Virus genome (UHGV): UHGV-1804947
DNA from: a virus
Strand: one strand, 5' to 3'
Length of the DNA stretch: 15,931 bases
Shown: one piece after another, positions 123 through 14,300 of the stretch
How the letters are laid out: every line of letters begins with the position of its first letter
Numbering within the stretch: position 1 is the first letter of the stretch
Notes under the pieces: generated by a model
Told to the model about the DNA's origin: nothing
Seen by the model: only the letters and a program-made list of their open reading frames with translations
The model's database searches: none
Made by a program: the position numbers and the translations under genes

Positions 123-425
123 TTACTCCGTTGATACCAGTAAATGACTGCGGCCACCCAGATCAGTTTTCGAGGGATAATCCTGTGTGTTGTCATCGCA
201 GACCACCACCAGCTTAAAACCAAGCCCCATACAGGCGTACTGCGCCAGCAGATCAGCGCCAGTGACGAGAGGAATACCGGAGATTACCGGCTCCCCTCTG
301 TCGTTCTGCAGGTCCATAATCCAGTAAGGATCGCGCCATATGATGCTAATCTGCCAAGTGACACCACCCAGGACGATGCTGAACTGCTGGTTTTCCGCTG
401 TCAGCGGAATTTCCTGAATAGTCAT
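123..425 (-). CDS. Hypothetical phage tail protein (100 aa)
   Basis: ORF in the six-frame track. Its ATG at 425..423 shares one nucleotide with the stop of the upstream gene (TAATG), suggesting translational coupling within the tail operon. No family recognised. Confidence 0.5.
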   Translation of the reverse strand: MTIQEIPLTAENQQFSIVLGGVTWQISIIWRDPYWIMDLQNDRGEPVISGIPLVTGADLLAQYACMGLGFKLVVVCDDNTQDYPSKTDLGGRSHLLVSTE

Positions 426-1012
426 TAGCCGCCTCCCAGTAATGACGCCACGTTACCAGTGATGCTTTTCAGCAGTGAAGTATCTGGAGGCTTTGTGGTT
501 TTGTTGCCGCTGTTCTGTAGCGCCGACGTGCTGGCCCCTTCCTTCATGTTGGTTTTATCCGCGACGGTGATCTGCTGTGTCCGGGAGATAAGGACCTCCC
601 TCAGGGTGAGGACGGCGGACAGGACGTTTTCGGTTGTCTTGTCCGTCGTCACTTCCAGCGCCCGGATCAACATGTTGCTGTACAGTCGTTTACCGGTTAC
701 CACATCGAAGGGGATACGGCTTTCCTGCAGATCCAGTAGCTCCTGATACGTCTGCTGAGGACTCAGGCCGAGCAGGCTGGTAGCCGTCAGATTACTGGCA
801 AAATCCAGCAATGCGCCGCCACCGGCGAAACCAACCTCCATCACCACTTCTGACGGTTTTTTATAGGCATGATCAGCGACAGCGGCCCCGACCTCTACCG
901 GATGCTCTGTTATTTCAAGCATATCTGTATGCTTCTCTGAAATAACAACACTGGGAACAATCATTCCTATTTTTCTGCTCTGCTGATGAAAAAGTGTAGA
1001 GAGAATATCCAC
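425..1012 (-). CDS. Putative tail/baseplate protein (195 aa)
   Basis: ORF directly downstream of the tape measure gene. Its ATG at 1012..1010 overlaps the tape measure stop by 1 nt. The position is typical of post-TMP tail or baseplate assembly proteins. Family not identified. Confidence 0.5.
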   Translation of the reverse strand: MDILSTLFHQQSRKIGMIVPSVVISEKHTDMLEITEHPVEVGAAVADHAYKKPSEVVMEVGFAGGGALLDFASNLTATSLLGLSPQQTYQELLDLQESRIPFDVVTGKRLYSNMLIRALEVTTDKTTENVLSAVLTLREVLISRTQQITVADKTNMKEGASTSALQNSGNKTTKPPDTSLLKSITGNVASLLGGG

Positions 1013-3000
1013 TAACTCACCCTCACCTGATTACTTCGCATGACCTGAGCATTTGCAGACTGTTGCCGACGTGCAACCTCATTACCGACAGCGTGCGGAT
1101 CTCCGCCACCGTAAATGTGGTAAGTATTTTGCTGGTTAACCTCTGTCATTTTGCCACTAATTCCCGCCACGGCAGCCTTATTAATCAGCTCTCGAGAATA
1201 GATATTTCTTCCATTTTCATGCTGGATAATGCTGCTCATCAATGCTGACATGGTTTGCGGATCGCTCATATTCAGGGCAGCCCGGGGATCCACTCCCAGT
1301 CGTTGCGATACAGCCCTGATATACGCAGTTGTGTTGTTATTATCAGACGCAGGTGCCCAGGTAGAGATAATTTTCTCCACACTGTTTATTCCCCGTCCGG
1401 CGTACAGCATTAACTGACGAGCAAGAGCCCGTAATCCATCAAAAGCAGTTTCAAATCTGGCAAATCGCCCGCCCGGGCGTTCAAGAGAAGCCCCTGCCTG
1501 ACCAGCAAAATTAAGGTTTCCCGGATTGTTATTCCGTTCTCCTCGTTTCGTAGCCTGTGCATATTGTTCCGGCTCATCATCACTAAACCAGCCGCGTACC
1601 GTCCGGCCCACACTGCGGGGATCGAATCCCCAGTGCTCTTTAATCCAGTCGGCAGTACTGTTAGCGCTGTCTGTAACCATCGGCATCGCTGACGGATTTT
1701 CGCTGCCCTGATTAAGTATCTGTTTGCCGATGCTGACGGCATCAGCCCAGCGGCCATCTTTGATAGCGTTGAGCAGGTCGGCGATCATGTTCAGCATTTT
1801 GCTGAATTCGCCCATCTGGTCGATGAAGTTGCTGAAATCCCACTTCAGGGACCATGATTTGGGGTCAATATTGAGCAGTTTCGCCAGCGCTTTCGCCAGT
1901 TCATTAACAGACCCTTTCAGGTCACGAACCATCTTCAGCGCGGCATCGACCTCCGGCTTCCACTTGCCCCAGTCAATCAGGCTGTCGCCGCCTTCCTTCC
2001 AGGTCTGATAGTCCTCCCACAGAAGGGCAATCCCCGCCGCCAGCGCGGTAATGAGGCCAATCGGCGACATCCAGAACGTACTGTTCAGAATGCGCAGCGC
2101 AATCGTCAGCGCGCCAAACAGCGAGATGAGCTCCCGCGTTTGCTTATCCAGCGATTGCCACCAGGTGATGAGGCCTGATGTTCCTTCAATCAGTCTGAAG
2201 AACAGCCGCCCGATAATATCCCCGAGCGCCAGAATGCCTTTTATGGCTTTCGTCAGGGTCTGCTCGATACGCGGGAAGTTGTCCAGGATATGGCGGCGCA
2301 GAGTGTCCAGCGAACCCGCAAGCCCACCCGCAAGATTAGAGCCGATTTTGTCACGGGCCATGCCTGCCATCGCGCCAAACTCACGCAGGGAGGTCATAAA
2401 TTTGTTGGAGCTTCTGGCCGCCTCGTCAGCATTGAAGCCGATAGCTTTCGCCATTGCGCTGTACTGCCCGGAGAAACCACCCACACCCCGGCGCATAGCC
2501 ATCAGGGTATTTTCGTCAATGCCCAGCATCTGCGCATACTGGTTAGCCCGGTAATACGGCATGCTGCTGAGCTTCTGGCCGACGCCCGTAAAGATAGCGG
2601 CCATGTCGCGCATGTTACCGCTGGCGTCACGGGTCTGTACCCCCAGACGATTCAGAAATCCCTCCGCCCCGGGGTTATTACGGATAAAACGGGCAAGGCT
2701 CTCCAGTGACCCGCGCGCAGCGTCCACGCTGCCGCCAACCTGCGAAACCGCATAGCCAATAGACTGAATTCCCTGGACTGTCGCGCCGGTGCGCTGTGAC
2801 GCCCAGTAAAGATTATCCAGGCCGGAGGCGATCTTAGCCGTGAAGGCCACCACGGACAGCGCAGCTCCTTCAACGGCCAGTCCCATTTTGATGACATTTG
2901 CAGTTGTACCGGCGAGGACAGAACCGAACTTTTTCGCTCCTGCATCATCCACACTGAAGCCAAGCGAGACGAGGAAATCTTTAATAGTTTCAGCGTTCAT
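1012..3000 (-). CDS. Tail tape measure protein (662 aa from ATG 3000)
   Basis: Largest ORF in the tail module, immediately after the chaperone frameshift region. It has a long Ala/Gly-rich helical N-terminal part, a hydrophobic segment (SPIGLITALAAGIALLW) and a distinct C-terminal domain. The preferred start is ATG 3000..2998 (MNAETIKDF...), preceded by AGAGAGG 5 nt upstream. The track start at 3021 has no RBS. Confidence 0.8.
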   Translation of the reverse strand: MNAETIKDFLVSLGFSVDDAGAKKFGSVLAGTTANVIKMGLAVEGAALSVVAFTAKIASGLDNLYWASQRTGATVQGIQSIGYAVSQVGGSVDAARGSLESLARFIRNNPGAEGFLNRLGVQTRDASGNMRDMAAIFTGVGQKLSSMPYYRANQYAQMLGIDENTLMAMRRGVGGFSGQYSAMAKAIGFNADEAARSSNKFMTSLREFGAMAGMARDKIGSNLAGGLAGSLDTLRRHILDNFPRIEQTLTKAIKGILALGDIIGRLFFRLIEGTSGLITWWQSLDKQTRELISLFGALTIALRILNSTFWMSPIGLITALAAGIALLWEDYQTWKEGGDSLIDWGKWKPEVDAALKMVRDLKGSVNELAKALAKLLNIDPKSWSLKWDFSNFIDQMGEFSKMLNMIADLLNAIKDGRWADAVSIGKQILNQGSENPSAMPMVTDSANSTADWIKEHWGFDPRSVGRTVRGWFSDDEPEQYAQATKRGERNNNPGNLNFAGQAGASLERPGGRFARFETAFDGLRALARQLMLYAGRGINSVEKIISTWAPASDNNNTTAYIRAVSQRLGVDPRAALNMSDPQTMSALMSSIIQHENGRNIYSRELINKAAVAGISGKMTEVNQQNTYHIYGGGDPHAVGNEVARRQQSANAQVMRSNQVRVS

Positions 3001-3630
3001 TATCCTCTCTCCATTTCTCAATGCGCCGCTGGTTATCCGCTTTTACCGCCAGATGGTCATTCAAGAGAGCAATGTCATACAAATCGACAGAGCCATCTTT
3101 AAGTGCTGTATAGGGAATTAACCCGGCGTCAACCGGATTGAGAAGGTAGGACAGCCCGTCCGGCAGGCTGTTAAACGTCAGCCCTGTTGCAGGCTCTGCG
3201 TCGTGCTGGTAAGGGGTGTAGGCAAAAAATTTCCCAGCGAATCGGCGACCACCCGCGCCACCAGATGAAGCATGACCAGCAAGTCAATATCATCAAACAT
3301 CAGTTCGCCCTGGGTAAATACCGGAACCCATCCGTCCATATGACGCCGCGACACCACCGCAAGACAGGGATGAATAATCGCATCGGTGTCATCTTCGGTC
3401 AGGGAAGACAGTTCCTCAGCGATACGCGGGAGCATGGTTTCAAACACCGGTTTTAACTGCTCGAATTTCACGGTGTCGATTTTGCCATCAGCAGGCAAAC
3501 GGGAGCGAATGCTCCCGAAATCTGACATCATTCCTGCCAGCACCGGCAGAAGTTTGCGGGTCACTTTCAGCTGATCAAAAACGCTGAGTTTTGCCGCGCG
3601 ATATTTCACGCCTTTGATTTCGAATTCCAT
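2990..3630 (-). CDS. Tail assembly chaperone, -1 frameshift-extended product (lambda GT-like, about 213 aa)
   Basis: The -1 frame is open for 77 codons from the slippery site at 3229..3223 to a TGA at 2992..2990 that overlaps the tape measure start. It exactly fills the otherwise non-coding 156-nt gap. Hand translation of the extension: AYTPYQHDAEPATGLTFNSLPDGLSYLLNPVDAGLIPYTALKDGSVDLYDIALLNDHLAVKADNQRRIEKWREDNER. Confidence 0.55.
3178..3630 (-). CDS. Tail assembly chaperone, zero-frame product (lambda G-like, 150 aa)
   Basis: Small acidic ORF between the tail tube and tape measure genes. RBS GGGAG lies 8 nt upstream of ATG 3630. A slippery heptamer sits 12 codons before its stop (next features). 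Confidence 0.7.
   Translation of the reverse strand: MEFEIKGVKYRAAKLSVFDQLKVTRKLLPVLAGMMSDFGSIRSRLPADGKIDTVKFEQLKPVFETMLPRIAEELSSLTEDDTDAIIHPCLAVVSRRHMDGWVPVFTQGELMFDDIDLLVMLHLVARVVADSLGNFLPTPLTSTTQSLQQG
3223..3229 (-). promoter_or_regulatory. Programmed -1 ribosomal frameshift slippery heptamer T_TTT_TTG
   Basis: Minus-strand sequence GGA AAT TTT TTG CCT in the chaperone zero frame gives an X_XXY_YYZ heptamer. It is in the canonical position for the conserved tail-chaperone frameshift. Confidence 0.5.
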
Positions 3631-3633
3631 GTA

Positions 3634-4074
3634 TTAAAACTCCCCGAGAACCTGGTCAATCTTGCCGCAGTCAAACACCCACGGCATCGTATTACCGGTT
3701 TTAGCGTTGGCATTATCCGGTTGTTTCTGGAACGCAACACTACGTGCCGTGATGATGTCGCCGCTGACCTTGTTTCGGATCACAATAACGTTATTCCCCC
3801 ATGTGGCAGAAGACTGGCTCTGTGCGTTATACGCCAGCGACAATTTTTTATTTGTCGGTGATGTCTTCAGAAGGTTAACGGTAATCGTCCCGCTTTTATC
3901 TGCATGGAGACTGTGCATCACTTCGCCATCAGAACCGATGGTCATGGTGTTTTTAGGACCGCCCATCGCAACCACAATCCCCTCTTCAGAACTTGCAGAA
4001 CCGTACCCGAGGTCAATCGAACCGGTCGGCCCGGTCAGCGTCGCAGTGACATCCATAAAAGAATAGGTAGACAT
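3634..4074 (-). CDS. Tail tube protein (146 aa)
   Basis: ORF between the sheath-sized gene and the chaperone. Strong RBS (AAGGGGAAG) upstream of ATG 4074. Size and position are typical of a contractile-tail tube protein. Confidence 0.65.
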   Translation of the reverse strand: MSTYSFMDVTATLTGPTGSIDLGYGSASSEEGIVVAMGGPKNTMTIGSDGEVMHSLHADKSGTITVNLLKTSPTNKKLSLAYNAQSQSSATWGNNVIVIRNKVSGDIITARSVAFQKQPDNANAKTGNTMPWVFDCGKIDQVLGEF

Positions 4075-4084
4075 TCACTTCCCC

Positions 4085-5230
4085 TTAGCGAACAACGTTA
4101 ATCTGTACGTCAGCGTAATGAACCGCGCCTGCAAGTTTTATTGCAGCCTGAATCACCGGAGCCTTACGGGCTTCACGTTCTGATTGTGCCTGTTCATCCA
4201 GCGGCTGGGCGTATACGTAATAACCTTTGGGCAGTGTGTCACCTGATGACAACTGACCAAGGTCGCCCCCGTTCCATACGCCCGGAGCAATCAGTCCATT
4301 CTGAACGGCCTGATCCAGTGATTTTTCAACATTTGATAACAGTCGGGTAATACCGGCTTCAGTCTGGGGAACTTTCGTGGTGCTGGTATAAAGCAGGTTA
4401 TAGAGGTTGGTCTGCACATAATTCTGTAACCAGTCCAGGCCGTGGCGTTCATCAAAGAAATCGCCGTTAGCCATCACTCCCTGCTGGAGGATAGCTGTAT
4501 CATTCTGGTAGTACACGAACACATTGCAGTTTTTTGCATCAAGTGCCGATGCCTGGCTGACTGTCAGTGTTTCATACCCGACACCCGGCTCCTGCTTAAA
4601 CTTGAGCGTAATCGCGGTATTACTGCCATTGAAATTAACCGTGAATGCCCGGCCAAATGCAGATAACGCAGCGTATTTATTACCCGATGAATATTGAATA
4701 AAACTGCGTGAATATCCGGCGATTTTCAGTTTTGATGCCAAATCATCGCTGGATGCAGTCTGCAGGCATTTCTCATCGCTTGTCGTAATCGCCAGAATAC
4801 GGCTTACAGAAGAGGATTCGATCGCCGCAGCCACTTTCAGCCAGTCTGCATCCGGAATATCTTCATCGTCTGCAATCCCCAGCCCATACCATGAAGTATA
4901 ATCGAGCATGGCATTCACAGCCTGCTCCAGCGTCTCAGGCGTGGCCTGTTCGCTGTCTCCCTTCGTTTTCACCCAACGACCAACAAAAACCTCCTGAGGT
5001 TTCGGTGATTGAGAGAAAAACACCTGCGCAGCCTTATATTCTGGTGATTCCACGCCAAAATCTTTTCCAATATCTTCCGCGGCAGAATAACGGCGAATGC
5101 GCTCACTTACCGGAATGATTGTGGACGGGCCGAGAATGAGTAATGCACCAAAATTTCGCCCTGATGCTGCACGCGGCGACATGATCACATCAACATTAAC
5201 AACGTTTGATACAGGCAAGCCCTGTGCCAT
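4085..5230 (-). CDS. Tail sheath protein (381 aa)
   Basis: ORF immediately upstream of the tube gene. RBS GGAG lies 8 nt before ATG 5230. The sheath-tube-chaperone-TMP order is diagnostic of a contractile tail module. Family assignment is from memory and unverified. Confidence 0.6.
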
Positions 5231-5233
5231 AGC

Positions 5234-5797
5234 TTAATCTCCGAAAAAGATGACTGGTGCTTCCACCAGCGATTTAATACCGTACTCGCGCACAATCTTC
5301 CGGCGCAGACGCACCGTCATATCGTAGCGGCGGATCCATTGCTGATTAATAAGTTCAGGGAAGGGAGTCAGACCTGTGTAATCGCCAAGAGACAGCCCCA
5401 GCGCATTCAGTGCTGCGTTGTTCTGCGGTACAGATATACCGTCACGAAACCGGGACGCATACACCATCCCCGCCGGACCATAAAACGAAGCCATACACTC
5501 AATCGTTTCATGCCGCCAGAGCTGAGAGCCATCATCGGTCTGTCTGGTGAATGCCGGACTGTCATCACCTGACCATCCGATAACCCCAAACGCACACCAG
5601 TTCGTTTCAGCCGGTAGCAGTGGCGGTTGCTCTTTCTGCCAGCGCGGACGAACCATCCCGGCAGACAGACCGGAAACGTTACGCATCCACTGGCTTAACA
5701 GCCTGTCGAGCGCTTCGTCATAATCCGGATCGCCACTGGTTGGTATTAACCATCCGCGCTCTGTACTGGTGTTATTGCTCAACCGGAGTTCCCCCAT
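5234..5797 (-). CDS. Hypothetical virion protein (tail completion or neck candidate, 187 aa)
   Basis: ORF between the connector genes and the sheath. I prefer ATG 5797..5795 over the TTG at 5800 used by the track. The start overlaps the upstream gene by about 26 nt and has no clear SD, so the start is uncertain. Confidence 0.5.
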   Translation of the reverse strand: MGELRLSNNTSTERGWLIPTSGDPDYDEALDRLLSQWMRNVSGLSAGMVRPRWQKEQPPLLPAETNWCAFGVIGWSGDDSPAFTRQTDDGSQLWRHETIECMASFYGPAGMVYASRFRDGISVPQNNAALNALGLSLGDYTGLTPFPELINQQWIRRYDMTVRLRRKIVREYGIKSLVEAPVIFFGD

Positions 5798-6161
5798 CAA
5801 ACGGCATCAACTCACAATGCGCCTGAACGAATCCGGCCCCATAAGCTGTATACGGGTCGACGAAGGTCACACGATAATCACGGCCCTGATACGTCACGAT
5901 ATCGGCATCACGCCCAGTCTGTCCCTGCGTCAGTCGCTCAGTCGTCACAATCAGAATTGCACCGCTGATTACCTGCCCTGCCTGCATACGGCGGTTTTCC
6001 AGAGAGCGATCAACAGTTACGACTCCGGCAAACTGCTTTTTTACTTCACTGTCGCTACCGATCCCGTCCTCATCCACCGTTTGCACACGCCGTGTTACCC
6101 ACAAATTGAAGTCGCAAAAATCGGGGTCAAAAAGCACATCTGTTACATCAAGAGTCGGCAT
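5772..6161 (-). CDS. Hypothetical head-tail joining protein (129 aa)
   Basis: ORF with RBS GAGGA 6 nt upstream of ATG 6161. It overlaps the upstream gene by 14 nt. Position between capsid and tail modules. Confidence 0.5.
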   Translation of the reverse strand: MPTLDVTDVLFDPDFCDFNLWVTRRVQTVDEDGIGSDSEVKKQFAGVVTVDRSLENRRMQAGQVISGAILIVTTERLTQGQTGRDADIVTYQGRDYRVTFVDPYTAYGAGFVQAHCELMPFDGGTPVEQ

Positions 6162-6702
6162 CTTTATTCCTCACAACATGGGTAATGGCTCTGCGATATT
6201 GCCCGGTGTCGATTAGCGGTTTCACCAGATCGGTTCCGGGGGACTCGCCAGCAGCGCGTCGGGCAAGCTCCGCTTTCGCCCCTTTACGCCCTCGACGCGC
6301 GCGGGCTTCAACGGTGCTATCAGCAAGCGGTGTAAAGCCGGTAATAGTCATGTAACGCCTGACGCCATTAGCGGCCAGCGTTCCGGCACGGTTGAGCGCT
6401 CTTTCCGCACCCGCCGCATTACCATCAAGCGCAGCCTGCGCCGCTGCTTTGAGCTGCGGCACTGTCTGTTCTTCTACCGATTTAACGCCGGGGACCAGGT
6501 GAGGTCGTGGCGGGATGTTTTGCGCCGGTGAGCCGTATTCGTTGAGGTAACCGATCCCGGCATTACCAAACGGAACATCCTCACGCTCGCTGTCTGCTTC
6601 CGGGATACCCACCAGCACTTCTTTTTTATTGATGGATTTGAGCGCATCCAGAATGGCCTGAGCGTTATCCACCCTCGTTGTTACACCGCTTTTGAAACTC
6701 AT
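6148..6702 (-). CDS. Hypothetical head-tail connector/completion protein (184 aa)
   Basis: ORF with an ATGA start/stop overlap with the upstream gene (6702..6699). Ala/Arg-rich C-terminal half. Position in the head-tail joining block. Confidence 0.5.
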
Positions 6703-7106
6703 AGCTGGCGACCACCTGCACCGAACATCGTGATCAACTGATAAAATTCAGCGCCATATCGGGTGTTATTCCAGAAACCTGCATCAGGATTCAGCGTCGC
6801 GCTGGTGTCATAACTGACGCTTACCTTGTCAACAGACTTTGAGGATTGAACACCATTGGTTGAACCGCCCGGGCCGCCAACCAGCATTGCCCGACTATCT
6901 GCCGCCCATAGCGTCATGTAGTGAGCCACGAACAACTCGGCAAAGTACGGAAACAACTTTTTTCCGGTGACGTTTTCGCTCAGCAGTTCATCGGCCAGAT
7001 TCAGACGAAACTGGATTTGCGCTTCGGGATATTTGGCAGGGTCAGCAAACTGCGGGAAGTCGCGGCGAAAATCACTTACCGCTGGCAGACTTTGATTCTT
7101 TGGCAT
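6699..7106 (-). CDS. Hypothetical head-tail connector protein (135 aa)
   Basis: ORF with RBS GAGGT upstream of ATG 7106. Overlaps the preceding gene by 35 nt. Confidence 0.5.
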
Positions 7107-7293
7107 TTTTTACCTCGTTACGCGCGTCTGTGGCTTTGCCAACGGATACTTCCGCGTGCGCACGAGTGAACCAGTGCGTGGCAACTTCTTCCTCCACAGC
7201 ATGACGGCCTTTAACAAACTCGCTCCGTGAACCGTCGGGAAGCGTGAGCACAAACGGGGTATGTACGTGTATTACTGCATTATTTTTTGCCAT
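7072..7293 (-). CDS. Small hypothetical virion protein (73 aa)
   Basis: ORF immediately downstream of the major capsid gene. RBS AAGGA lies 7 nt upstream of ATG 7293. Confidence 0.5.
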
Positions 7294-7308
7294 CGGGTCA
7301 TCCTTAAT

Positions 7309-7326
7309 GGCCCCCGCCAGGGGGCC
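7309..7326 (-). promoter_or_regulatory. GC-rich stem-loop just downstream of the major capsid gene (7-bp stem GGCCCCC/GGGGGCC, 4-nt loop)
   Basis: Perfect inverted repeat read directly from the sequence, in the 42-nt gap between the capsid stop (7336) and the next start (7293). No U-tract follows on the transcribed strand, so it is not a canonical intrinsic terminator. Confidence 0.4.
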
Positions 7327-7335
7327 ATGTGGCTG

Positions 7336-8277
7336 TTAAATGCCATCAACGTACGAAATGGTTTCTTTGTACACTGGCTCAACCGCACCCAGCTTGCCGT
7401 AGTAAGTGACGATCTGATACAGACTGCGATACTGCACCGGCACGCTCTGAAGCGGAACCAGCGGGTAGCGGACGTATTTTTTATCGTTGGTATACGCAAC
7501 CATGCGATCCTTTTTCCCCACACCACGGCCTTTCAGCCATTTAACCGCGCGGATATTCAGCGGAACACCGTTCTGGTGATAGCTGATGGTGTTGGTCTGA
7601 AGGTACGTCAACAGGGACTGGTTACCCGCAGATGAAACGATGATGCTGGACAACAGAGCAAACTGCTCAGGTGGGATCAGCAAATCACTCGGAACCACAG
7701 AGTAACCGGAAGCGGCCCACGCATCAGACAGCACCTGGTTAATGCTTGCGCGGATTTCGTCCGGTGTTGAGGTTGCCCACGTTTTGGCAGCGTTGTTGAC
7801 AGGCACGCCGTCCAGGGTAACAAGGCCTTTCAGGTTTAATGCTGAATCGCCAACATATACCTGTTCATCGTTATCCATCTGCCATTTCAGTTGCATCCCG
7901 TCATACTTCTGCGTATCGATCGGGCGTCCGACCTGCTGAGCAGCCTGCAATTCTATGACCGTCCAGCCAAGTTCCATCCCCCACAGGTTCAGCGGGTTAC
8001 CGGATTTGCCGATATCCACGTTCACGCCAGCAATAGCGGTTGAGTCTTTGCCTACCCAGTTTTTGCCATTCGGATTTGCGCCAGTACCCGCAGCGGCGAA
8101 GCTGGTATTCGTCCAGCTGGAAATGTCATCTGCGATGGAGACATCTTCACGCAGTTGGATATCGCGGGTCCAGGTGTACCCCACCAGTGGCAGGTTCAGC
8201 GTCTGGTCGAGTCGTTCCAGCTCCCCGATGAGAAAGGCACCAGAGCTGTCAACGGTTGCCTGATCAAAAGTAATCAT
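7336..8277 (-). CDS. Major capsid protein (313 aa)
   Basis: ORF in the canonical position after the scaffold and accessory head genes. RBS AAGGA lies 8 nt upstream of ATG 8277. It is followed by a stabilising hairpin. Size fits a major capsid protein. Confidence 0.7.
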   Translation of the reverse strand: MITFDQATVDSSGAFLIGELERLDQTLNLPLVGYTWTRDIQLREDVSIADDISSWTNTSFAAAGTGANPNGKNWVGKDSTAIAGVNVDIGKSGNPLNLWGMELGWTVIELQAAQQVGRPIDTQKYDGMQLKWQMDNDEQVYVGDSALNLKGLVTLDGVPVNNAAKTWATSTPDEIRASINQVLSDAWAASGYSVVPSDLLIPPEQFALLSSIIVSSAGNQSLLTYLQTNTISYHQNGVPLNIRAVKWLKGRGVGKKDRMVAYTNDKKYVRYPLVPLQSVPVQYRSLYQIVTYYGKLGAVEPVYKETISYVDGI

Positions 8278-8288
8278 TCGTCTGTTCC

Positions 8289-8771
8289 TTAAATCTTCCA
8301 GGAAATTTCTGCATTGCCGTTAGCATCACCGGCACCTGTGAATTCAGCGTTGGTCAGCACCACGTTTTTGCCACTGACTGACGTGGCCATGAATCCACCC
8401 AGCGGCACTTTGATGGATTCATCAGTGGAGACGACAACGTATACCGGGTCGCCTTTTTTGATGGTGCTGGCATCAAAATCAGAACCGAGATTAACGGTCA
8501 CGTAGCCACGCTTCATTGCGTCGCCCGGGAAGTTCTTGCCACTCCCCACCTGGCGAACCATGTCCGGCTGCGAAGTGGTCGGATAAGGGCGCACATAGAT
8601 CCCCTTCACCTTGTCTGCGGTATCACCATCTGCCAGCGGCACGAAAAAACCGTCATCATCGTATTTACCAGCCAGCCCATAGGCAGCGAAGGCGTTATCG
8701 GATTTAAGGACCACCGGTTCGACGGTTAAGTCCTGCGGGCGAGAGACAGCCCCGGCAATGCCAACAGGCAT
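8289..8771 (-). CDS. Phage head structural protein (decoration or accessory capsid candidate, 160 aa)
   Basis: ORF between the scaffold-like gene and the major capsid gene. No clear SD at ATG 8771, so the start is uncertain. Confidence 0.5.
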   Translation of the reverse strand: MPVGIAGAVSRPQDLTVEPVVLKSDNAFAAYGLAGKYDDDGFFVPLADGDTADKVKGIYVRPYPTTSQPDMVRQVGSGKNFPGDAMKRGYVTVNLGSDFDASTIKKGDPVYVVVSTDESIKVPLGGFMATSVSGKNVVLTNAEFTGAGDANGNAEISWKI

Positions 8772-8797
8772 CCGGTACAGAATACATTATTCATTTT

Positions 8798-10018
8798 TTA
8801 CCCTTTACGGTTTGCCCAGAATTCAGCGTTTTGTTTGTTCAGGGAAGCGATACTGGTCATGCCCATGTTTGGGCGCTGTGCATCGCCGGTGGTGGCGCGG
8901 GTGTTTCGCCCTTTGGCAATTTCAGACACGGCATTAAACGCCATGTCGACCGATTGTTTCGGCAATTTGCGGATATCCGCATCACCGACGATCTGGCGAA
9001 CCAGCGTTTTATCTGCGGAAGCCAGAACCTCGCGTTTGAACGCGGTCGGTTTCATCTTACGGCTCAGATCGATACCCGGAACGATAACTTCGGCACGCCA
9101 GGCTGAGTCACCAGTAATCGTGGTTTCCTCTTCATCGTCCTCGCCGTCACCGGTCGGATTATCGTCAGGCTTATTGTCGTTATCGCCCGTCGCATTTCCT
9201 TCCAGCTTAGCCAGCAGGGCTTTCAGTAATGTTTTGAGGTCATCATCACTGTCGCCGGTTGGACCTCCACCCATCTCTGGTGCTTTGTCCGGTAGTGGTT
9301 GCTGCGGGGACAGATTGATGTTGAGATTAACGCCCTGCGGCAAATCCCCCTCATCTCCTGTAACCGATGCGGGAGCCGACTCCACCAGTTCGTTCATGGT
9401 GTCGGCATCTCCTGTCTTGATGGCTGCACGCATGCGGTTCCACCAGTTTTTCTTTTGATTTGCCATTGTGTCTCTGTCTCCAATTGCACAACGATTTCCG
9501 GCTCTGCCTTTGGGGACAAGAGCCACATGGTTTCCGGTAATATCGACCTGCTCGGCTTTACCTGGCTCGGTCTGCTCGTACTCCGCGTCATAGCCGCACG
9601 ACACTTCACGCAGGCCATCTTCGATAAGCTGAATGGCGTTTTCGTCTTTGACGATAAGGTCAGCCAGCATCAAATCAGACTGCTCACCCGTCCCGCGCCG
9701 GACATTCTGGAGGTGCCCGACAGCAAGCTCTTTCCAGTTCTCGGGATTTACCAGCCGCACATTCCCGTTTTCATCTTCAGGATGCAGGATCGTGATGCTC
9801 ATCCCTTCGAATGAGGCGAGCGTGGCCGGATGGAATACCTGCTCAGGAGAACGCGTTACGACTATCTCACCGAGCTTGTCGGGTTTGAGGTTTGGCAGAT
9901 CGGCAGCGCCGTAGAGCTGCTTACCCGTTCGACCTATCGGCACGTCTTTGCACAGCAGCGAGCCGTCAGCCAGCTGATAGCGGGTTTCCCCCAGCCTGGT
10001 ATTGAAAAAATATTTCAT
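8798..10018 (-). CDS. Putative head scaffolding/maturation protein (406 aa)
   Basis: ORF after the F-like gene. It contains a long acidic, Pro/Gly-rich low-complexity linker (GDSDDD...DDNPTGDGEDDEEETT) typical of scaffold or prohead-protease proteins. RBS AGGT upstream of ATG 10018. Confidence 0.55.
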   Translation of the reverse strand: MKYFFNTRLGETRYQLADGSLLCKDVPIGRTGKQLYGAADLPNLKPDKLGEIVVTRSPEQVFHPATLASFEGMSITILHPEDENGNVRLVNPENWKELAVGHLQNVRRGTGEQSDLMLADLIVKDENAIQLIEDGLREVSCGYDAEYEQTEPGKAEQVDITGNHVALVPKGRAGNRCAIGDRDTMANQKKNWWNRMRAAIKTGDADTMNELVESAPASVTGDEGDLPQGVNLNINLSPQQPLPDKAPEMGGGPTGDSDDDLKTLLKALLAKLEGNATGDNDNKPDDNPTGDGEDDEEETTITGDSAWRAEVIVPGIDLSRKMKPTAFKREVLASADKTLVRQIVGDADIRKLPKQSVDMAFNAVSEIAKGRNTRATTGDAQRPNMGMTSIASLNKQNAEFWANRKG

Positions 10019-10032
10019 GGTTTACCTGCGAT

Positions 10033-10806
10033 TCAGGCGAGATAAGAATGAGGGTTGGGAAAAACGATTTCTTTATAACAGCGACAATTCGGGAGCTCGC
10101 CAGCGTGACCGGTCATGCCATCAAGCGTTGGAGGTTTGCCCCATTCGACAAACTTACCTTCCATCTCCCGATGAGAATGCCGGACGTCGCCATCTTCGGC
10201 TGTACGCCAGATATAACCATTCGAGCCGATTGACAGCGCACGCGCCTGATCCAGCGCGCCGGTTGCACGTCCAAGCTCGGTACGGGCGATAAGGTTCGCT
10301 CGTGAGCGTGACACGTCACCGGACGCTGCTATCTCTTTCGCGAATGGTTCAGCGCGGCCACCAGACACAACGGCCTCGATGGCCTTGTTCTGAATGTCAT
10401 ACACCCGATCGGCGGCCTCAAGAGGCAGTGACTTGATGTACTTAATTTGCTCGGCGACGATGGATTTCATCACCTGGCCTACCGGGGCGCGGTCGACCAT
10501 GTTGCGCAGCTCTGAACTGATGTTCCGGCTGTGTTGACGCCACTGCTTTTCATTCTGGCGCGCTATGTCTGCGGTGAAGTTCTCAGCTACCTTCGTCGCC
10601 CAGGGGGTGATGATTTCACTGTAGCGTTCCAGCGCCTCAATAATTTCCGTGATACTGTCATTTGAACCATCGTAGCGACCATTTACGATGTCCCCGACCG
10701 CCCGCGCTATCTGCCGTAGGCTCGTTCGATATCGGATCTCCGCCTGGCGACTCTGGCGGTTTGTCGCCAAGTTCGCCGATGCCTGGCGGCGCTTCGTCTT
10801 CGGCAT
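10033..10806 (-). CDS. Head morphogenesis protein (Mu F-like / SPP1 gp7-like minor head protein, 257 aa)
   Basis: ORF immediately after the portal gene. Strong RBS GAGGA 8 nt upstream of ATG 10806. The start lies 149 nt inside the 3' end of the portal ORF in another frame. Family call is by position and composition, from memory. Confidence 0.65.
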   Translation of the reverse strand: MPKTKRRQASANLATNRQSRQAEIRYRTSLRQIARAVGDIVNGRYDGSNDSITEIIEALERYSEIITPWATKVAENFTADIARQNEKQWRQHSRNISSELRNMVDRAPVGQVMKSIVAEQIKYIKSLPLEAADRVYDIQNKAIEAVVSGGRAEPFAKEIAASGDVSRSRANLIARTELGRATGALDQARALSIGSNGYIWRTAEDGDVRHSHREMEGKFVEWGKPPTLDGMTGHAGELPNCRCYKEIVFPNPHSYLA

Positions 10807-12124
10807 TCTCTATGTCCTCGTCGGTAATGGATGCCCCGATGCCGGTTACGTCAGAATTTTCGCGCAAATCGGTCATAGCGGCTTTCAGTGTCATCAGACC
10901 ATCACCCAGCGCCGTACTGATTGCGTTGGTGGTGTTTACGGCCACCGTTGAGCGGTCAACGTCAGACATTTGCCATAGGGGGTTAAACTCAAACGTGAAA
11001 TCGTCCGGCAGCGGCTTACCGAGTTCCGAGCGGTGCATAATGTCCAGTATCCGGCGTATCGGCAGCCGTAAGCGGCGCTCCTGCAATGAGCTCACCCGGT
11101 CGTAATAGTTGGCGAGGTCTGCGTCACCAGTAGAGAAGCCTTTCGGGGATTGACCGAACAGTCGCACCAGCGGGATACCAACGGCACCGCTGATCTGCTC
11201 AGCGAACTGCGAAAGAATGTCATCCAGACCACTGAAGCTGTACTGATGGGTTTCAAACTTATCCCGCGAGTCCATGAGCGTCATGCCTTCATTGCTCTGG
11301 AACTGTCGAATCAGGTCGATATTCTTCAGCAACGCTTCATACGCAGGACCACCAAGTGCGATAAGCTCGCGTAGCTTCTCCACGCTGTAGGTGCGCAGAT
11401 GCGCCTTGTAGACCAGCTGCGCCGCGCCGACAGTAGCGCTGTCGAACGCGGTAAGACGATCCCAGATACGCTCTACAACCGACATTCCCCATTCGTTCTC
11501 GGTCATCTTCTGCTGGAATGGCAGCGTGACGCCATCAAAGCGAATCAGACGACTGTGATGAATGCGCCAGGCAGGAATTCCCGTTGCTGTGGTCACCACA
11601 TCGTAAAACTCAGGTTTACCCAGGTCCGGCCCCATATCTTTAATGCGGCGGGTCAGCACTGGGTTAATCATCCAGCGGTCGAGCGGGAGAATGCCCTTAA
11701 ACTTGCCTTCTCCAATGGTTTCGAGCCGCAGCGGGGTCATTGGTGCCTGCCCCTCAATCATGATGAAACCCACCGCGCCGCCATAGAGGCGCGACCATTT
11801 CAGCACGTCATTCAGCGCATCCCAGATTTGCAACTCATCCAGTTGTGATTCGAGAATGCCGCGATCTTTTGCATCAATTTCCGAAGTGATGCGAATGCCT
11901 TTGCGGGTCATATCATCTGGGATAGCATCGACCGCTTCGCCGATGATCCAGGACGAACGATAGGACCATTCCACCAGCATGCGGTTACGACTGGTGAAAT
12001 TAGCCCGGTAGGTGGATGCTGAGTGCTGGTTAGGTGTCTGCATCCCTACGCGGGCAATAAAATTCTCATAACCATCAGCTGTGGCCTGCGCAGTTCGCCG
12101 CAGGGCTTGTTTGTTTCGTGCCAT
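10658..12124 (-). CDS. Portal protein (488 aa)
   Basis: ORF directly downstream of the large terminase, with start and stop overlapping (TGATG at 12126..12122). Size is typical of a portal protein. Acidic C-terminal tail. Confidence 0.75.
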   Translation of the reverse strand: MARNKQALRRTAQATADGYENFIARVGMQTPNQHSASTYRANFTSRNRMLVEWSYRSSWIIGEAVDAIPDDMTRKGIRITSEIDAKDRGILESQLDELQIWDALNDVLKWSRLYGGAVGFIMIEGQAPMTPLRLETIGEGKFKGILPLDRWMINPVLTRRIKDMGPDLGKPEFYDVVTTATGIPAWRIHHSRLIRFDGVTLPFQQKMTENEWGMSVVERIWDRLTAFDSATVGAAQLVYKAHLRTYSVEKLRELIALGGPAYEALLKNIDLIRQFQSNEGMTLMDSRDKFETHQYSFSGLDDILSQFAEQISGAVGIPLVRLFGQSPKGFSTGDADLANYYDRVSSLQERRLRLPIRRILDIMHRSELGKPLPDDFTFEFNPLWQMSDVDRSTVAVNTTNAISTALGDGLMTLKAAMTDLRENSDVTGIGASITDEDIENAEDEAPPGIGELGDKPPESPGGDPISNEPTADSAGGRGHRKWSLRWFK

Positions 12125-13746
12125 CAGGCCTGTCTCCCTAGCAGCTCCCAGATGTTCAGGGCTGAATTCATTGGGGCATAGTTGATCATCACCGAGTCGG
12201 CAAGGTTTGGCGATCGGGTTCCATCAGGCTGTTTATCAATAACGATTTTTCCCACACCATTAATGGAATAGGTCGGCTGCGAAAGCTCGATGATGAGTTT
12301 ATCTTTGAGTGCCATGCTACTGCTGATTGAGATGATTTCGTCCGGGTTGTAAGCCATACCTTCAACCACGGCGCGCCAGGTATTCTGAAAAAGTTTACGT
12401 AACCGCCACCAGCTCTGGGCTTTGGCGTTAGCGAAGAAGTCCTTGTTCAGACGTGCGGCTTGCCCGTTGTCCCCGCGAACAGCTTCATCATCTGGATCAA
12501 ATACCGCGCCACTACCGCGAAACGGTGTAGCGAGTATTGACGGTCGACGCGCAGCGTTACGCTGTTCGTTGATAGCGCGTGCATCGCCGCGAACGCCAGC
12601 GCCCAGCCCGTCCTCATCAAAGCGAAACTCTTCGAGGTTGTCCTGTTCGCAAAAACCGAAGACCTTCTCGACGGACTGATAAATGTCGCTGCCCACACCG
12701 GACCATTCCCGCACATTTTCCAGGAGGAAGCCATGACGGGTGGAAAATGCATTTTTGTCCCTGCCTTCGTCGGCGACATCCATCGCGCCAAGTCGTTTGC
12801 CTGTTGGCTGGATACCCAGTTTGATATGTGCATCAACGGCAGCCTGTACCCATTCGGATGGAATCAGGACGCCTTCCGCTGATGCGCTGTAGTTCAGATC
12901 AAGTTCCTGTGCCACCACCACCGGATTATCGATTTTCTCGCATTCCCTGCGATACCACTCTTCATCCTTGCGAGGATCATCCCGCCAGTGGAATGTGAAT
13001 ACCGGTATCTTCCCGCCATGACGCTTCTGAGCGAACGGGTTCGCCATGCCGTTAACTGAACTCAGGTCAATACGGCAACGCGTCGTTTGTGACAACGCCG
13101 CATCAATCAGCAGAGGACGCTGAAGGAATGCAGCCTCATCAACCAGATAAAGCGTGGTACGGTCACCACGACCAATATTATCGCCAGCCTCGCCTTTGAT
13201 AACGGCACCAGTTTCAGGAAACTCAACACGCATATATGGCGCGTGCTTCTTCTCGCTCCACGAACCGCGAAACTCTACAGGTAGTGTTTCCACGAACTTG
13301 CGCGCCTTCCAGAACAATGCTTTCGGGTCACCGGTGCTGTCGACGTATTCCTCTTTACGGGAGCCGAAACCGATAACCATTTCTTTGTTGAAGAGACAAA
13401 GCGAGCAGGCCAGTCCGATCGCGGTCCAACTGAGCCCCATTTCACGGGATTTTTCGGTAATACCATTCTCCCTATTGCCCCAGCGTTCCATAATCCAGTG
13501 GATCCACTCCTCCTGCTTAGGGAAGAGTAAAAACGGAATGGTCACCGGCAGGCCATAATCAATATTACGCGGGTCCGTTGTCATGCCCCAGTCGATGATG
13601 AACTGAGCCGGGTTGGTTCGGTAAAACTGTTTTAGTGCTGGCAATATTTCAGGGTTCTGGCGAATGCGCTGTAAGCGTTCCATCCGCCATTCAAAAACCA
13701 TCTGGTAATCAGGATGTTTAAAATCGAAGGGGAATGGTAACGGCAT
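12124..13746 (-). CDS. Terminase large subunit (540 aa)
   Basis: ORF starting 2 nt after the small terminase stop. It has a deviant Walker-A-like ATPase motif ([11 protein letters not shown], of the KSRxxGxS type seen in large terminases) and an Asp-rich C-terminal nuclease-like half. Confidence 0.85.
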
Positions 13747-13748
13747 AC

Positions 13749-14300
13749 TTAGCCCATCATTTTTCTATACGCCTCTGCAACCTGCTCCGGCGTTAAGTTG
13801 GTAATTTCTGTTCTGACTGGTCCTCCGTCAGCACCAGTCACTTCATTTTTGACATTGTCTTTAAACGCCTGAACAGAAACATGACGCCCGAGCAATTCAA
13901 GGTTTTTAACCTTATCAGGCCATTTGATTTTCTTCAGAAGTGCGGCGCTATCTGCGGATGCCATCTCCACGACATCCATTCCTGATAGCGTTGTGCGCCA
14001 TACCTTAGGCCAGTCTTTAATGGGCTTTAGCTCACCGTTTTGCAGGAGAATGTCGAGCACATCCATCTGGTCGATTTCAATAAGGCGATTAAGTACATAT
14101 TCTGCATTAATACCAATAAGATCATTGCGTTGCGCTTTCAGTTCGGCGATTCTTAACTTGATGTCAGGTTTTGACAGGTTTTCGGATGCGGTACGGTTAG
14201 CTGTCTTTGCGCTGTACCCCGCCCGAATAGCCGCTTGCGTGGCGTTTAAATCGATGAGGTACTCGCGACAGAACATTTCTTGCTTGTCAGTGAGTGCCAT
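13749..14300 (-). CDS. Terminase small subunit (183 aa)
   Basis: N-terminus [34 protein letters not shown] is the characteristic helix-turn-helix signature of this small-terminase family, recognised from memory. It lies immediately upstream of the large terminase. Confidence 0.85.

Follow-up and report, generated by a model that had tools for sequence, protein, structure and literature searches.

The 15,931-nucleotide (nt) virus genome UHGV-1804947, called the window here, raises the question of what is encoded by a seemingly empty stretch in its tail operon. Between the gene for a tail assembly chaperone and the gene for the tape measure protein, 177 nt (3001..3177) appear to carry no gene. 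When the 18 minus-strand open reading frames (ORFs) in 123..14300, which comprise 4708 codons, are taken as genes, this is the largest apparent gap among them and the runner-up measures 42 nt. A preliminary description of the window had likewise picked it out as the sole sizeable apparent non-coding stretch inside the tail operon. A role as a regulatory intergenic region was considered and rejected, as a scan of 2900..3700 for promoter-like and terminator-like sites returned none. Instead, the sequence makes it very likely that the chaperone gene is subject to a programmed −1 ribosomal frameshift of the lambda G/GT type, and that the gap is the part of the frame that only shifted ribosomes would read. 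The short chaperone, G, would then be accompanied by a longer fusion, GT, in a contractile-tail Escherichia coli prophage with Salmonella phage SEN34 and the vB_EcoM-606R2 group as relatives. This is the type of frameshift that the preliminary description had proposed, and it is now borne out by the position of the gene pair, a −1 ORF that lacks a start, a conserved in-phase slip site, coding selection in the −1 frame, and annotated precedents.

The chaperone gene and its −1-frame partner

The chaperone, the −1 frame that follows it (T), the slippery run and the neighboring tail genes all lie on the minus strand. The coding features in question are the following:

3178..3630, minus strand: gene for the short product G, a tail assembly chaperone of 150 amino acids (aa) in the zero frame, with its stop codon TGA at 3180..3178 (Phage_TAC_15, phrog_1688)
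2990..3223, minus strand: −1-frame extension T, 77 codons followed by TGA at 2992..2990 (Pfam DUF6889, phrog_4364)
2999..3115, minus strand: conserved core of the T domain as covered by the DUF6889 model, fusion residues 173-211 (Pfam match)

The product G matches the Pfam family Phage_TAC_15 (PF21822) over residues 6-136, with E=9.8e-31 and 107.4 bits against a gathering threshold of 22, and the family phrog_1688 'tail assembly chaperone' with E=2e-61. In a record that is 100% identical, the Prokaryotic Genome Annotation Pipeline (PGAP) annotates it as 'phage tail assembly chaperone'. The −1 frame runs through 97 codons, from 3283 to 2993, before it reaches the TGA at 2992..2990, and 34 of these codons overlap the G ORF. 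Its translation matches Pfam DUF6889 (PF21829; E=1.2e-20, 73.4 bits, gathering threshold 23.9) and phrog_4364 (E=1.9e-23), and the conserved block of the T domain starts further upstream than the DUF6889 core, at LPDG (about 3166). Phage_TAC_15 and DUF6889 were the only families that G and T matched in the Pfam scan (E<=0.1). A search of NCBIfam gave no match, and a profile built from 15 fusions retrieved nothing meaningful among PDB sequences, the best hit being a designed cage at E=0.12.

The predicted GT fusion joins 3630..3226 (or ..3223) to 3226 (or 3223)..2990. Translation of the two predicted products gives the 150 and 213 aa put forward in the preliminary description, and agrees with the 77 open codons that it had counted from the slip to the TGA at 2992..2990. 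That stop codon had also been said to overlap the tape measure start codon, but it actually lies 6 nt past the ATG at 3000..2998. The end of the T ORF overlaps the start of the tape measure gene by 11 nt (ATGAACGCTGA), and the overlap is kept in relatives. It lies behind the Shine-Dalgarno (SD) sequence GGAGAGAGG, an arrangement that is also conserved.

Variants of this region were seen among related loci. In two close relatives (L046 and L055) the TGA of the T frame has become a sense codon, and the frame is three codons longer (…REDNERRDY, then stop), reaching deeper into the tape measure gene. Damaged prophage copies were found as well: an indel in one (L037, IMGVR_UViG_643348546_000003) cuts the T frame after 34 codons, and the chaperone ORF of another (L011, Apirhabdus apintestini CP138906.1) is broken after 47 codons.

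The −1 frame carries a clear signature of coding selection. Past the G stop codon, nucleotide diversity at the first, second and third positions of −1-frame codons is 0.175, 0.148 and 0.372. Codons with a single difference are synonymous or nonsynonymous in a ratio of 1260:340 when read in the −1 frame; the two remaining frames give 237:1504 and 263:1587. Within the 16-codon overlap before the G stop, the most variable position is position 3 of the −1 frame, which is position 2 of the G frame. Because variability peaks at position 2 of the G frame, the −1 frame must be constrained from the slip site onward, and almost no constraint is left on the tail of G beyond that site. When 15 conceptual fusions are aligned, conservation is highest in the T part, where L156, P157, P166, L184, N191 and N200 are invariant. 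The residues right after the slip (F-F/Y-x-R) are also conserved, and LPxG always follows 21-22 codons after the slip.

The two-frame layout is kept far beyond close relatives of the prophage. A first scan of viral contigs gave only copies with 98-99% aa identity in the G domain, and diversity was taken from a tblastn search of the fusion against 50,697 phage records. Forty of these matched, each as two pieces, and in those phage records that were fetched the second piece lies in the −1 frame. The distant set fetched comprised Bordetella, Providencia, Ralstonia, Burkholderia (three), Acinetobacter and Edwardsiella phages, Phage WC36-2 and the alphaproteobacterial prophage L017. All 10 distant loci keep a −1 ORF encoding LPDGEDWLLRPV…DGTLDLADIALMNDALDV.ADN, and 8 of the 10 carry an in-phase heptamer at the homologous 'NLGxF' site. 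The layout is also present in phages deposited as isolates or induced prophages, namely vB_EcoM-606R2, SEN34, Mulock and IFTN9.

Two observations on these homologs stand apart. An 18-nt sequence after the slip site, TTTTATTCAAGGGCTGCT, is identical in the Acinetobacter phage, a Burkholderia phage (66% GC) and Phage WC36-2 (L104, L105 and L107), although each of the three shares only about 31-34% identity with the E. coli fusion protein; in L105 the stretch lies at about 1009..1030. Dual coding (FIQGLLT / FYSRAAY) or an as yet unrecognised RNA element could account for this identity. Furthermore, a record with a Bacteroidota-host label (L114, OM284015.1, 'Elizabethkingia phage EKP1') is 71% nucleotide-identical to the E. 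coli prophage in this region. It carries the exact 13-nt slippery run described below along with neighbor genes of enterobacterial type, and the assignment of EKP1 to a Bacteroidota host looks doubtful.

The slippery run and its candidate stimulators

The features around the predicted shift are the following:

3223..3235, minus strand: slippery run G_GGA_AAT_TTT_TTG, 13 nt, with three overlapping in-phase X_XXY_YYZ heptamers (from sequence and conservation)
3229..3235, minus strand: heptamer G_GGA_AAT, the first in the run, of the lambda type G_GGA_AAN
3226..3232, minus strand: heptamer A_AAT_TTT, whose A-site codon is Phe135 (TTT at 3228..3226, preceded by the T at 3229), singled out by family comparison
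3223..3229, minus strand: heptamer T_TTT_TTG, the site of the preliminary description, of the same T6G form as the P2 E/E+E' site
3247..3254, minus strand: SD-like sequence GGGUGGUC, with its core GGTGG at 3253..3249, a candidate upstream stimulator by complementarity to the anti-SD

Codons 134-136 of G are AAT TTT TTG (3231..3223), and T_TTT_TTG at 3229..3223 is indeed in X_XXY_YYZ phase, as had been described. It had been taken for a single heptamer, but two further overlapping in-phase heptamers had been overlooked, making three in all. The distance of twelve codons given between this site and the stop also needs amending: with TTG as codon 136 and the stop as codon 151, the two are separated by 14 sense codons.

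The site stands out within the operon. Of 19 in-phase heptamers in the 18 ORFs, three are located here, and the remaining 16 are followed by −1 runs of just 0-20 codons. A −1 run of at least 77 codons is found at 2.1% of the 4708 codon positions. In-phase A_AAA_AAG heptamers are present at 6042 and 6963 (minus strand), inside the genes 5772..6161 and 6699..7106. This motif is the most efficient −1 motif in E. coli. Only 8 (6042) and 20 (6963) open −1 codons follow the two sites, and shifting at either would lead to truncated products.

In a sliding analysis, synonymous-site variability falls to its gene-wide minimum at the slip site, where it is 0.08 of the gene average. The 14-nt run TGGGAAATTTTTTG is invariant in 19 non-redundant representative loci from Enterobacterales, though some share just 57-60% identity with the predicted fusion protein and synonymous sites on either side differ. 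The exact 13-mer is found in 102 of the 117 loci fetched. Three near-identical loci have CTA for CTG (CTA GGA AAT TTT TTG); therefore G_GGA_AAT is dispensable, and it was rejected as the essential heptamer.

Comparison across the family points to the codon aligned with F135. In the lineages compared (17/17) this codon is preceded by T, and it is TTT in each of them except the Bordetella phage, which has TTC. The codons before the invariant Phe are AAT, CCT, TCT, GAT, GGT, AGT or ACT, depending on the lineage. In the three Burkholderia phages, with 62-66% GC, the ratio of TTT to TTC is 2:21, 2:12 and 2:13 and T makes up 4-7% of third positions, and in phage Magia CCT is 1 of 19 Pro codons. Since NNT TTT is kept against this GC codon bias, it must be selected at this site. 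In E. coli, cognate re-pairing in the A site gives the best shifters, R_RR.U_UU.Y is a notably shifty class (Sharma et al., PMC4066793), and the short list of active tetramers includes U_UU.C and U_UU.U, with heterogeneous codons such as UUG being poorer shifters (PMC4066793).

The shared shift element is thus most likely U_UUY at the invariant Phe codon. As this element is found in all 17 lineages, the homologous site in the window is A_AAT_TTT (3232..3226), which is most likely the main site. The T_TTT_TTG heptamer, where the preliminary description had located the shift, is an in-phase site, but the element that the family shares lies one codon upstream of it; T_TTT_TTG may provide an adjacent second chance to shift. 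The two possible fusion products differ at residue 136 alone, and the predicted junction sequences of GT are …SLGNFFAYTPYQ… or …SLGNFLAYTPYQ…. A slip on A_AAU_UUU (or G_GGA_AAU) would give N-F-F-A, seen as …VVADSLGNFFAYTPYQHDAE…, and a slip on U_UUU_UUG would give N-F-L-A, seen as …GNFLAYTPYQ…. From the family comparison, N-F-F-A is the more likely junction.

An SD-like sequence upstream may add to the signal. The three heptamers begin 11, 14 and 17 nt downstream of GGGUGGUC, and their second bases are 14, 17 and 20 nt from its GGTGG core. GGNGG elements located 6-17 nt upstream are an experimentally stimulatory class for −1 shifting (PMC4066793). The duplex of GGGUGGUC with the 16S 3' end has 8 bp and a predicted energy of −12.7 kcal/mol, and it is the strongest anti-SD match of the G-T region in 15 of 18 representatives. 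This energy is reached by just 3 of 14169 10-mers in the operon, one other being the true ribosome-binding site (RBS) of the gene 6148..6702 (CAGGTGGTCG at 6718). Codons 119-124 form a trough in synonymous-site variability (0.35 of average). Only 5 of 8 distant homologs have an SD-like motif in range, where 14% would be expected by chance. These data are no more than suggestive of a stimulatory role for GGGUGGUC. Two GGTGG motifs (3262..3258 and 3253..3249) fall in a stretch of low synonymous variation, 3247..3262, on the minus strand.

We propose the following sequence of events. Most ribosomes would stop at 3180..3178 and release the 150-aa G, and a minority would slip one base back on G_GGA_AAU_UUU_UUG (3235..3223). 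In the latter, the A-site tRNA-Phe would most likely re-pair from UUU at 3228..3226 to UUU at 3229..3227 (A_AAU_UUU), with U_UUU_UUG as the second chance. Slipped ribosomes would read 77 further −1 codons to the TGA at 2992..2990 and yield the 213-aa GT. The lambda system suggests roles for the two products. The tape measure protein would be coated by G, whether free or within GT, and the T part (DUF6889) would bring in the tube protein, after which the tube and then the sheath would polymerise to the measured length. The frequency of slipping would set the G:GT ratio.

Several points weigh against a frameshift here. The case for it in the TAC_15+DUF6889 family is built on sequence comparison, and the papers describing Mulock and SEN34 make no mention of a frameshift. 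U_UUU_UUG is outside the 18 motifs that were chosen as efficient without stimulators (PMC4066793). The Edwardsiella phage ZHS and the Burkholderia phage E192a carry the tetramer only and have no full heptamer, and the invariance of the 13-mer could partly reflect dual coding (LGNFL in frame 0, KFF in frame −1). Lastly, a downstream hairpin or pseudoknot, the type of stimulator that the preliminary description had suggested looking for, did not emerge from any of three approaches. Folding of the single downstream sequence gave z-scores for the minimum free energy of 0.01 (100 nt) and −1.0 (58 nt), RNAalifold on 13 diverse downstream sequences gave a consensus of −0.44 kcal/mol with 2 invariant pairs and no covariation, and an Rfam scan returned nothing but a chance miRNA match (E=0.67). 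Given that no such structure was found downstream, the efficiency of the shift may be low.

Alternative routes to the T domain

DUF6889 could instead be an independent small gene (54 aa, 3154..2990) that is translated from its own non-canonical start or by reinitiation, with no frameshift. RefSeq/PGAP treats the T frame as a gene of its own, coding for a 54-aa 'DUF6889 family protein' at 2990..3154 on the minus strand (NZ_CP063515.1, 968130..968294), several phage records also annotate a separate coding sequence of 42-69 aa, and the protein collection holds 33 clusters of DUF6889 proteins with lengths of 43-78 aa. Among the records listed for the E. coli region, 15 of 15 split G and T; 14 use the name DUF6889, and one uses 'NTP pyrophosphohydrolase', the name that older records give to the T fragment. 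A query with the full fusion returned 684 matches, nearly all of them to the G part only.

However, the annotated starts speak against a gene of this kind. The RefSeq coding sequence starts with CTG, inside the conserved LPDGLSYLL block, and the DUF6889 proteins in the database have ragged N-termini (MPDG, MSYLL, MTLNS) that replace a Leu codon. In the window, the first ATG, GTG or TTG of the T ORF comes only after 28 codons of the conserved block, and it lacks an SD. A start codon before the block is missing in 11 of 18 representatives, and elsewhere the start positions differ. An independent start for the T ORF was rejected on these grounds, there being no usable start or SD and no conserved position. 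Moreover, the −1 frame is already constrained in the 16 codons before the G stop, both F-F/Y-x-R and its 21-22-codon spacing to LPxG are maintained, and natural in-frame G-T fusions, described below, join the two domains at the same point. We therefore consider it very unlikely that T is a gene of its own.

Two phages have been annotated in keeping with a frameshift. The GenBank entries for Mulock (MN098327, QFG06717.1) and Magia (NC_070954, YP_010668111.1) name a 'tape measure chaperone frameshift product', and the annotated lengths of 205 aa (Mulock) and 250 aa (Magia) are equal to the conceptual fusion lengths computed here. A literature search for DUF6889 found no paper that mentions it. 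One further protein, P0161 (201 aa), contains the last 60 residues of the T domain at 97% identity. Its N-terminus, as we read the sequence, resembles a precorrin-2 dehydrogenase or siroheme synthase, and the protein is probably a chimeric assembly or gene call.

The two frames could also be joined by transcriptional slippage, in which RNA polymerase would add a U in the T6 run to give an mRNA that reads G and T in one frame. The T6 homopolymer is there, and on a Logan contig (SRR23924998, L020 1896..1909) a near-identical copy of the prophage carries T7 where the window has T6 and codes in one frame for precisely the 213-aa protein that is predicted, so that one additional U does yield the right product. 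The 90% cluster of this protein has 16 member sequences, and one contig with the exact protein was read. As a single Logan assembly, the T7 contig most simply represents a homopolymer error or a mutation. For polymerase slippage to be efficient, a run of about 8-9 or more is needed. Distant homologs have no long homopolymer, carrying GGGAAAT + ACT TTC in the Bordetella phage and T4 in CCCTTTT, GATTTTA and TCTTTTA in others, and they always keep the phase for tRNA re-pairing, which polymerase slippage does not require. Because phase-correct motifs persist in distant homologs without long homopolymers, we find this route highly improbable.

Some distant relatives encode the fusion without recoding. 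In a search of 1.84 billion representative proteins, several proteins of 191-210 aa match G and T in one stretch, and the fused genes were located by exact-protein look-up. The fused and split relatives have 28-40% identity, and their contigs are short metagenomic assemblies (2-12 kb). The loci in question are the following:

L119 1501..2133 and L120 1038..1664: continuous non-slippery G-T ORFs in rearranged tail/baseplate contexts
L121 108..620 and 630..1238: a 170-aa TAC_15 (G-only) gene, then a separate 202-aa G-T gene, on a 2.1-kb contig

The protein P0276 is encoded by a continuous G-T ORF on three contigs, with CAA CCG TTC TTC TCC at the junction and no in-phase heptamer in the gene. P0174 is encoded by a continuous G-T ORF too (TAC TTC TCG), which is followed by baseplate genes. 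These natural fusions join the domains at the predicted frameshift point (…LQPFFSR… vs …LGNFFAY…). A viral-contig scan with P0276 found only two-frame relatives (L117/L118), and the same scan with P0174 found none. The relative with separate G and G-T genes may serve as an indirect pointer to both products being needed.

Continuous G-T genes in distant relatives, together with the damaged copies noted above (the indel in T of L037 and the early break in G of L011), might be read to mean that a one-base deletion or a sequencing error has split the chaperone gene and only the 150-aa product is made, but this can be set aside because the two-frame layout is conserved (315 of 5426 E. coli genomes, 102 of 117 fetched loci, all 40 phage records and the isolate or induced phages vB_EcoM-606R2, SEN34, Mulock and IFTN9) and the −1 ORF is under strong purifying selection, unlike a dead remnant.

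Known frameshift systems and the prophage context

The closest parallel to a programmed shift in the chaperone gene is the lambda G/GT pair (Levin et al. 1993; Xu, Hendrix & Duda 2004, 2013, 2014), as presented in a review (PMC5009743). In both, the gene pair lies directly upstream of the tape measure gene; here it sits between the tube gene (3634..4074) and the tape measure gene (1012..3000). Both have a −1 shift, predicted in the prophage, near the 3' end of G that leads to a minor fusion with a common N-terminus, and in both T has no independent start. The families keep the layout at the same position although their sequences show no similarity, and the first heptamer of the prophage run is of the lambda type G_GGA_AAN. 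However, the prophage tail is contractile, with sheath and tube genes, and its families are Phage_TAC_15 and DUF6889, with no other Pfam match. Its family element is U_UUY at Phe rather than G_GGA_AAG, and its run has three overlapping heptamers.

A second parallel is the E/E+E' pair in the FETUD tail operon of phage P2, where a −1 shift occurs on T6G (Christie et al. 2002, as cited in PMC3931495). By that account P2 is likewise a contractile-tail E. coli phage with the shift on a T6G run, and E', which has no RBS, runs into the beginning of the tape measure gene T, like the T frame of the prophage. In contrast, no homology to gpE/E' was detected in the prophage (Pfam, E<=0.1), and the slip motif T6G and the gene position are all that the two have in common. 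Furthermore, T6G in the prophage is preceded by GGGAAA, which creates two further heptamers, and the family comparison puts the shared site one Phe codon earlier than the T6G heptamer.

Mulock and Magia encode homologs of both G and T, with 57.8% (Mulock) and 36% (Magia) identity to the fusion by tblastn, in the same gene order. The run in Mulock is the identical GGGAAATTTTTTG, whereas Magia has C_CCT_TTT instead of the 13-nt run. In these phages the frameshift product is a database annotation made by analogy, and the E. coli copies are not so annotated in RefSeq. With the dnaX/IS911-type signals (PMC4066793) the prophage shares an in-phase heptamer, and its upstream SD-like element, of the GGNGG class and at a stimulatory spacing, is a candidate counterpart of theirs. 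Unlike the dnaX and IS3/IS911-type signals, it has no hairpin or pseudoknot 4-10 nt after the motif, and in place of AAG it has UUU or UUG in the A site.

The frameshift predicted in the prophage is therefore of the ordinary G/GT type, already annotated by analogy in Mulock and Magia. It would document G/GT frameshifting in a further contractile-tail lineage, the SEN34/Mulock-like temperate myophages, and leaves the textbook picture unchanged. It would also explain DUF6889/phrog_4364, a family with no annotated function that was formerly called 'NTP pyrophosphohydrolase', as the frameshift-encoded T domain of a chaperone. The split in RefSeq into a chaperone and a 54-aa coding sequence with a CTG start would need correcting, in a region carried by 315 of 5426 complete E. 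coli genomes.

More tentatively, the TAC_15+DUF6889 signal may reduce to U_UUY at one invariant Phe, held against GC bias and working without downstream structure. Enterobacterial members would have reinforced it with the triple-heptamer run and an SD-like element of RBS strength, and some lineages would have dropped recoding. This generalization falls somewhat short of being probable. If it is true, the frameshifted, fused and split versions would form a natural series on why frameshifting sets the G:GT ratio. The family is also a clean system in which to ask to what extent a bare slippery run with an upstream SD-like element makes E. coli ribosomes shift, as it combines a tetramer or heptamer free of stimulators at the invariant Phe with naturally fused and split variants.

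The window is an E. coli prophage, and its positions 2900..3700 (801 nt) are 100% identical to strain EH01-18-04-A. Relatives of the prophage include vB_EcoM-606R2 (98%), Yersinia phage YP3, Salmonella phage SEN34 and Klebsiella phage Mulock. The structural module contains, in order, the small terminase, portal, Mu-F-like protein, capsid, neck terminator, sheath, tube, chaperone, tape measure and baseplate proteins. The tail genes on either side of the chaperone are the following:

4085..5230, minus strand: tail sheath, 381 aa (phrog_205 'tail sheath', E=5.5e-135; Pfam DUF3383 (E217_gp31_N), E=5e-101)
3634..4074, minus strand: tail tube, 146 aa, directly upstream of the chaperone (Pfam KPP10_Orf10, E=6.8e-60; PF11681 is also listed as Phage_Tube_PhiTE)
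1012..3000, minus strand: tape measure, 662 aa, ATG at 3000..2998, with a lytic transglycosylase region (phrog_2276 'tail length tape measure protein', E=1.9e-282)

The PGAP start of the tape measure gene is the same ATG at 3000..2998. Given the presence of the sheath gene at 4085..5230, the tail module is contractile, and identification of both the sheath and the tube (3634..4074) upholds what the preliminary description had said of the tail type. Further upstream, the portal ORF (10658..12124) and the Mu-F-like ORF (10033..10806), both on the minus strand and read from their first start codons, overlap by 149 nt at 10658..10806; the true start of the Mu-F-like gene probably lies further in than listed.

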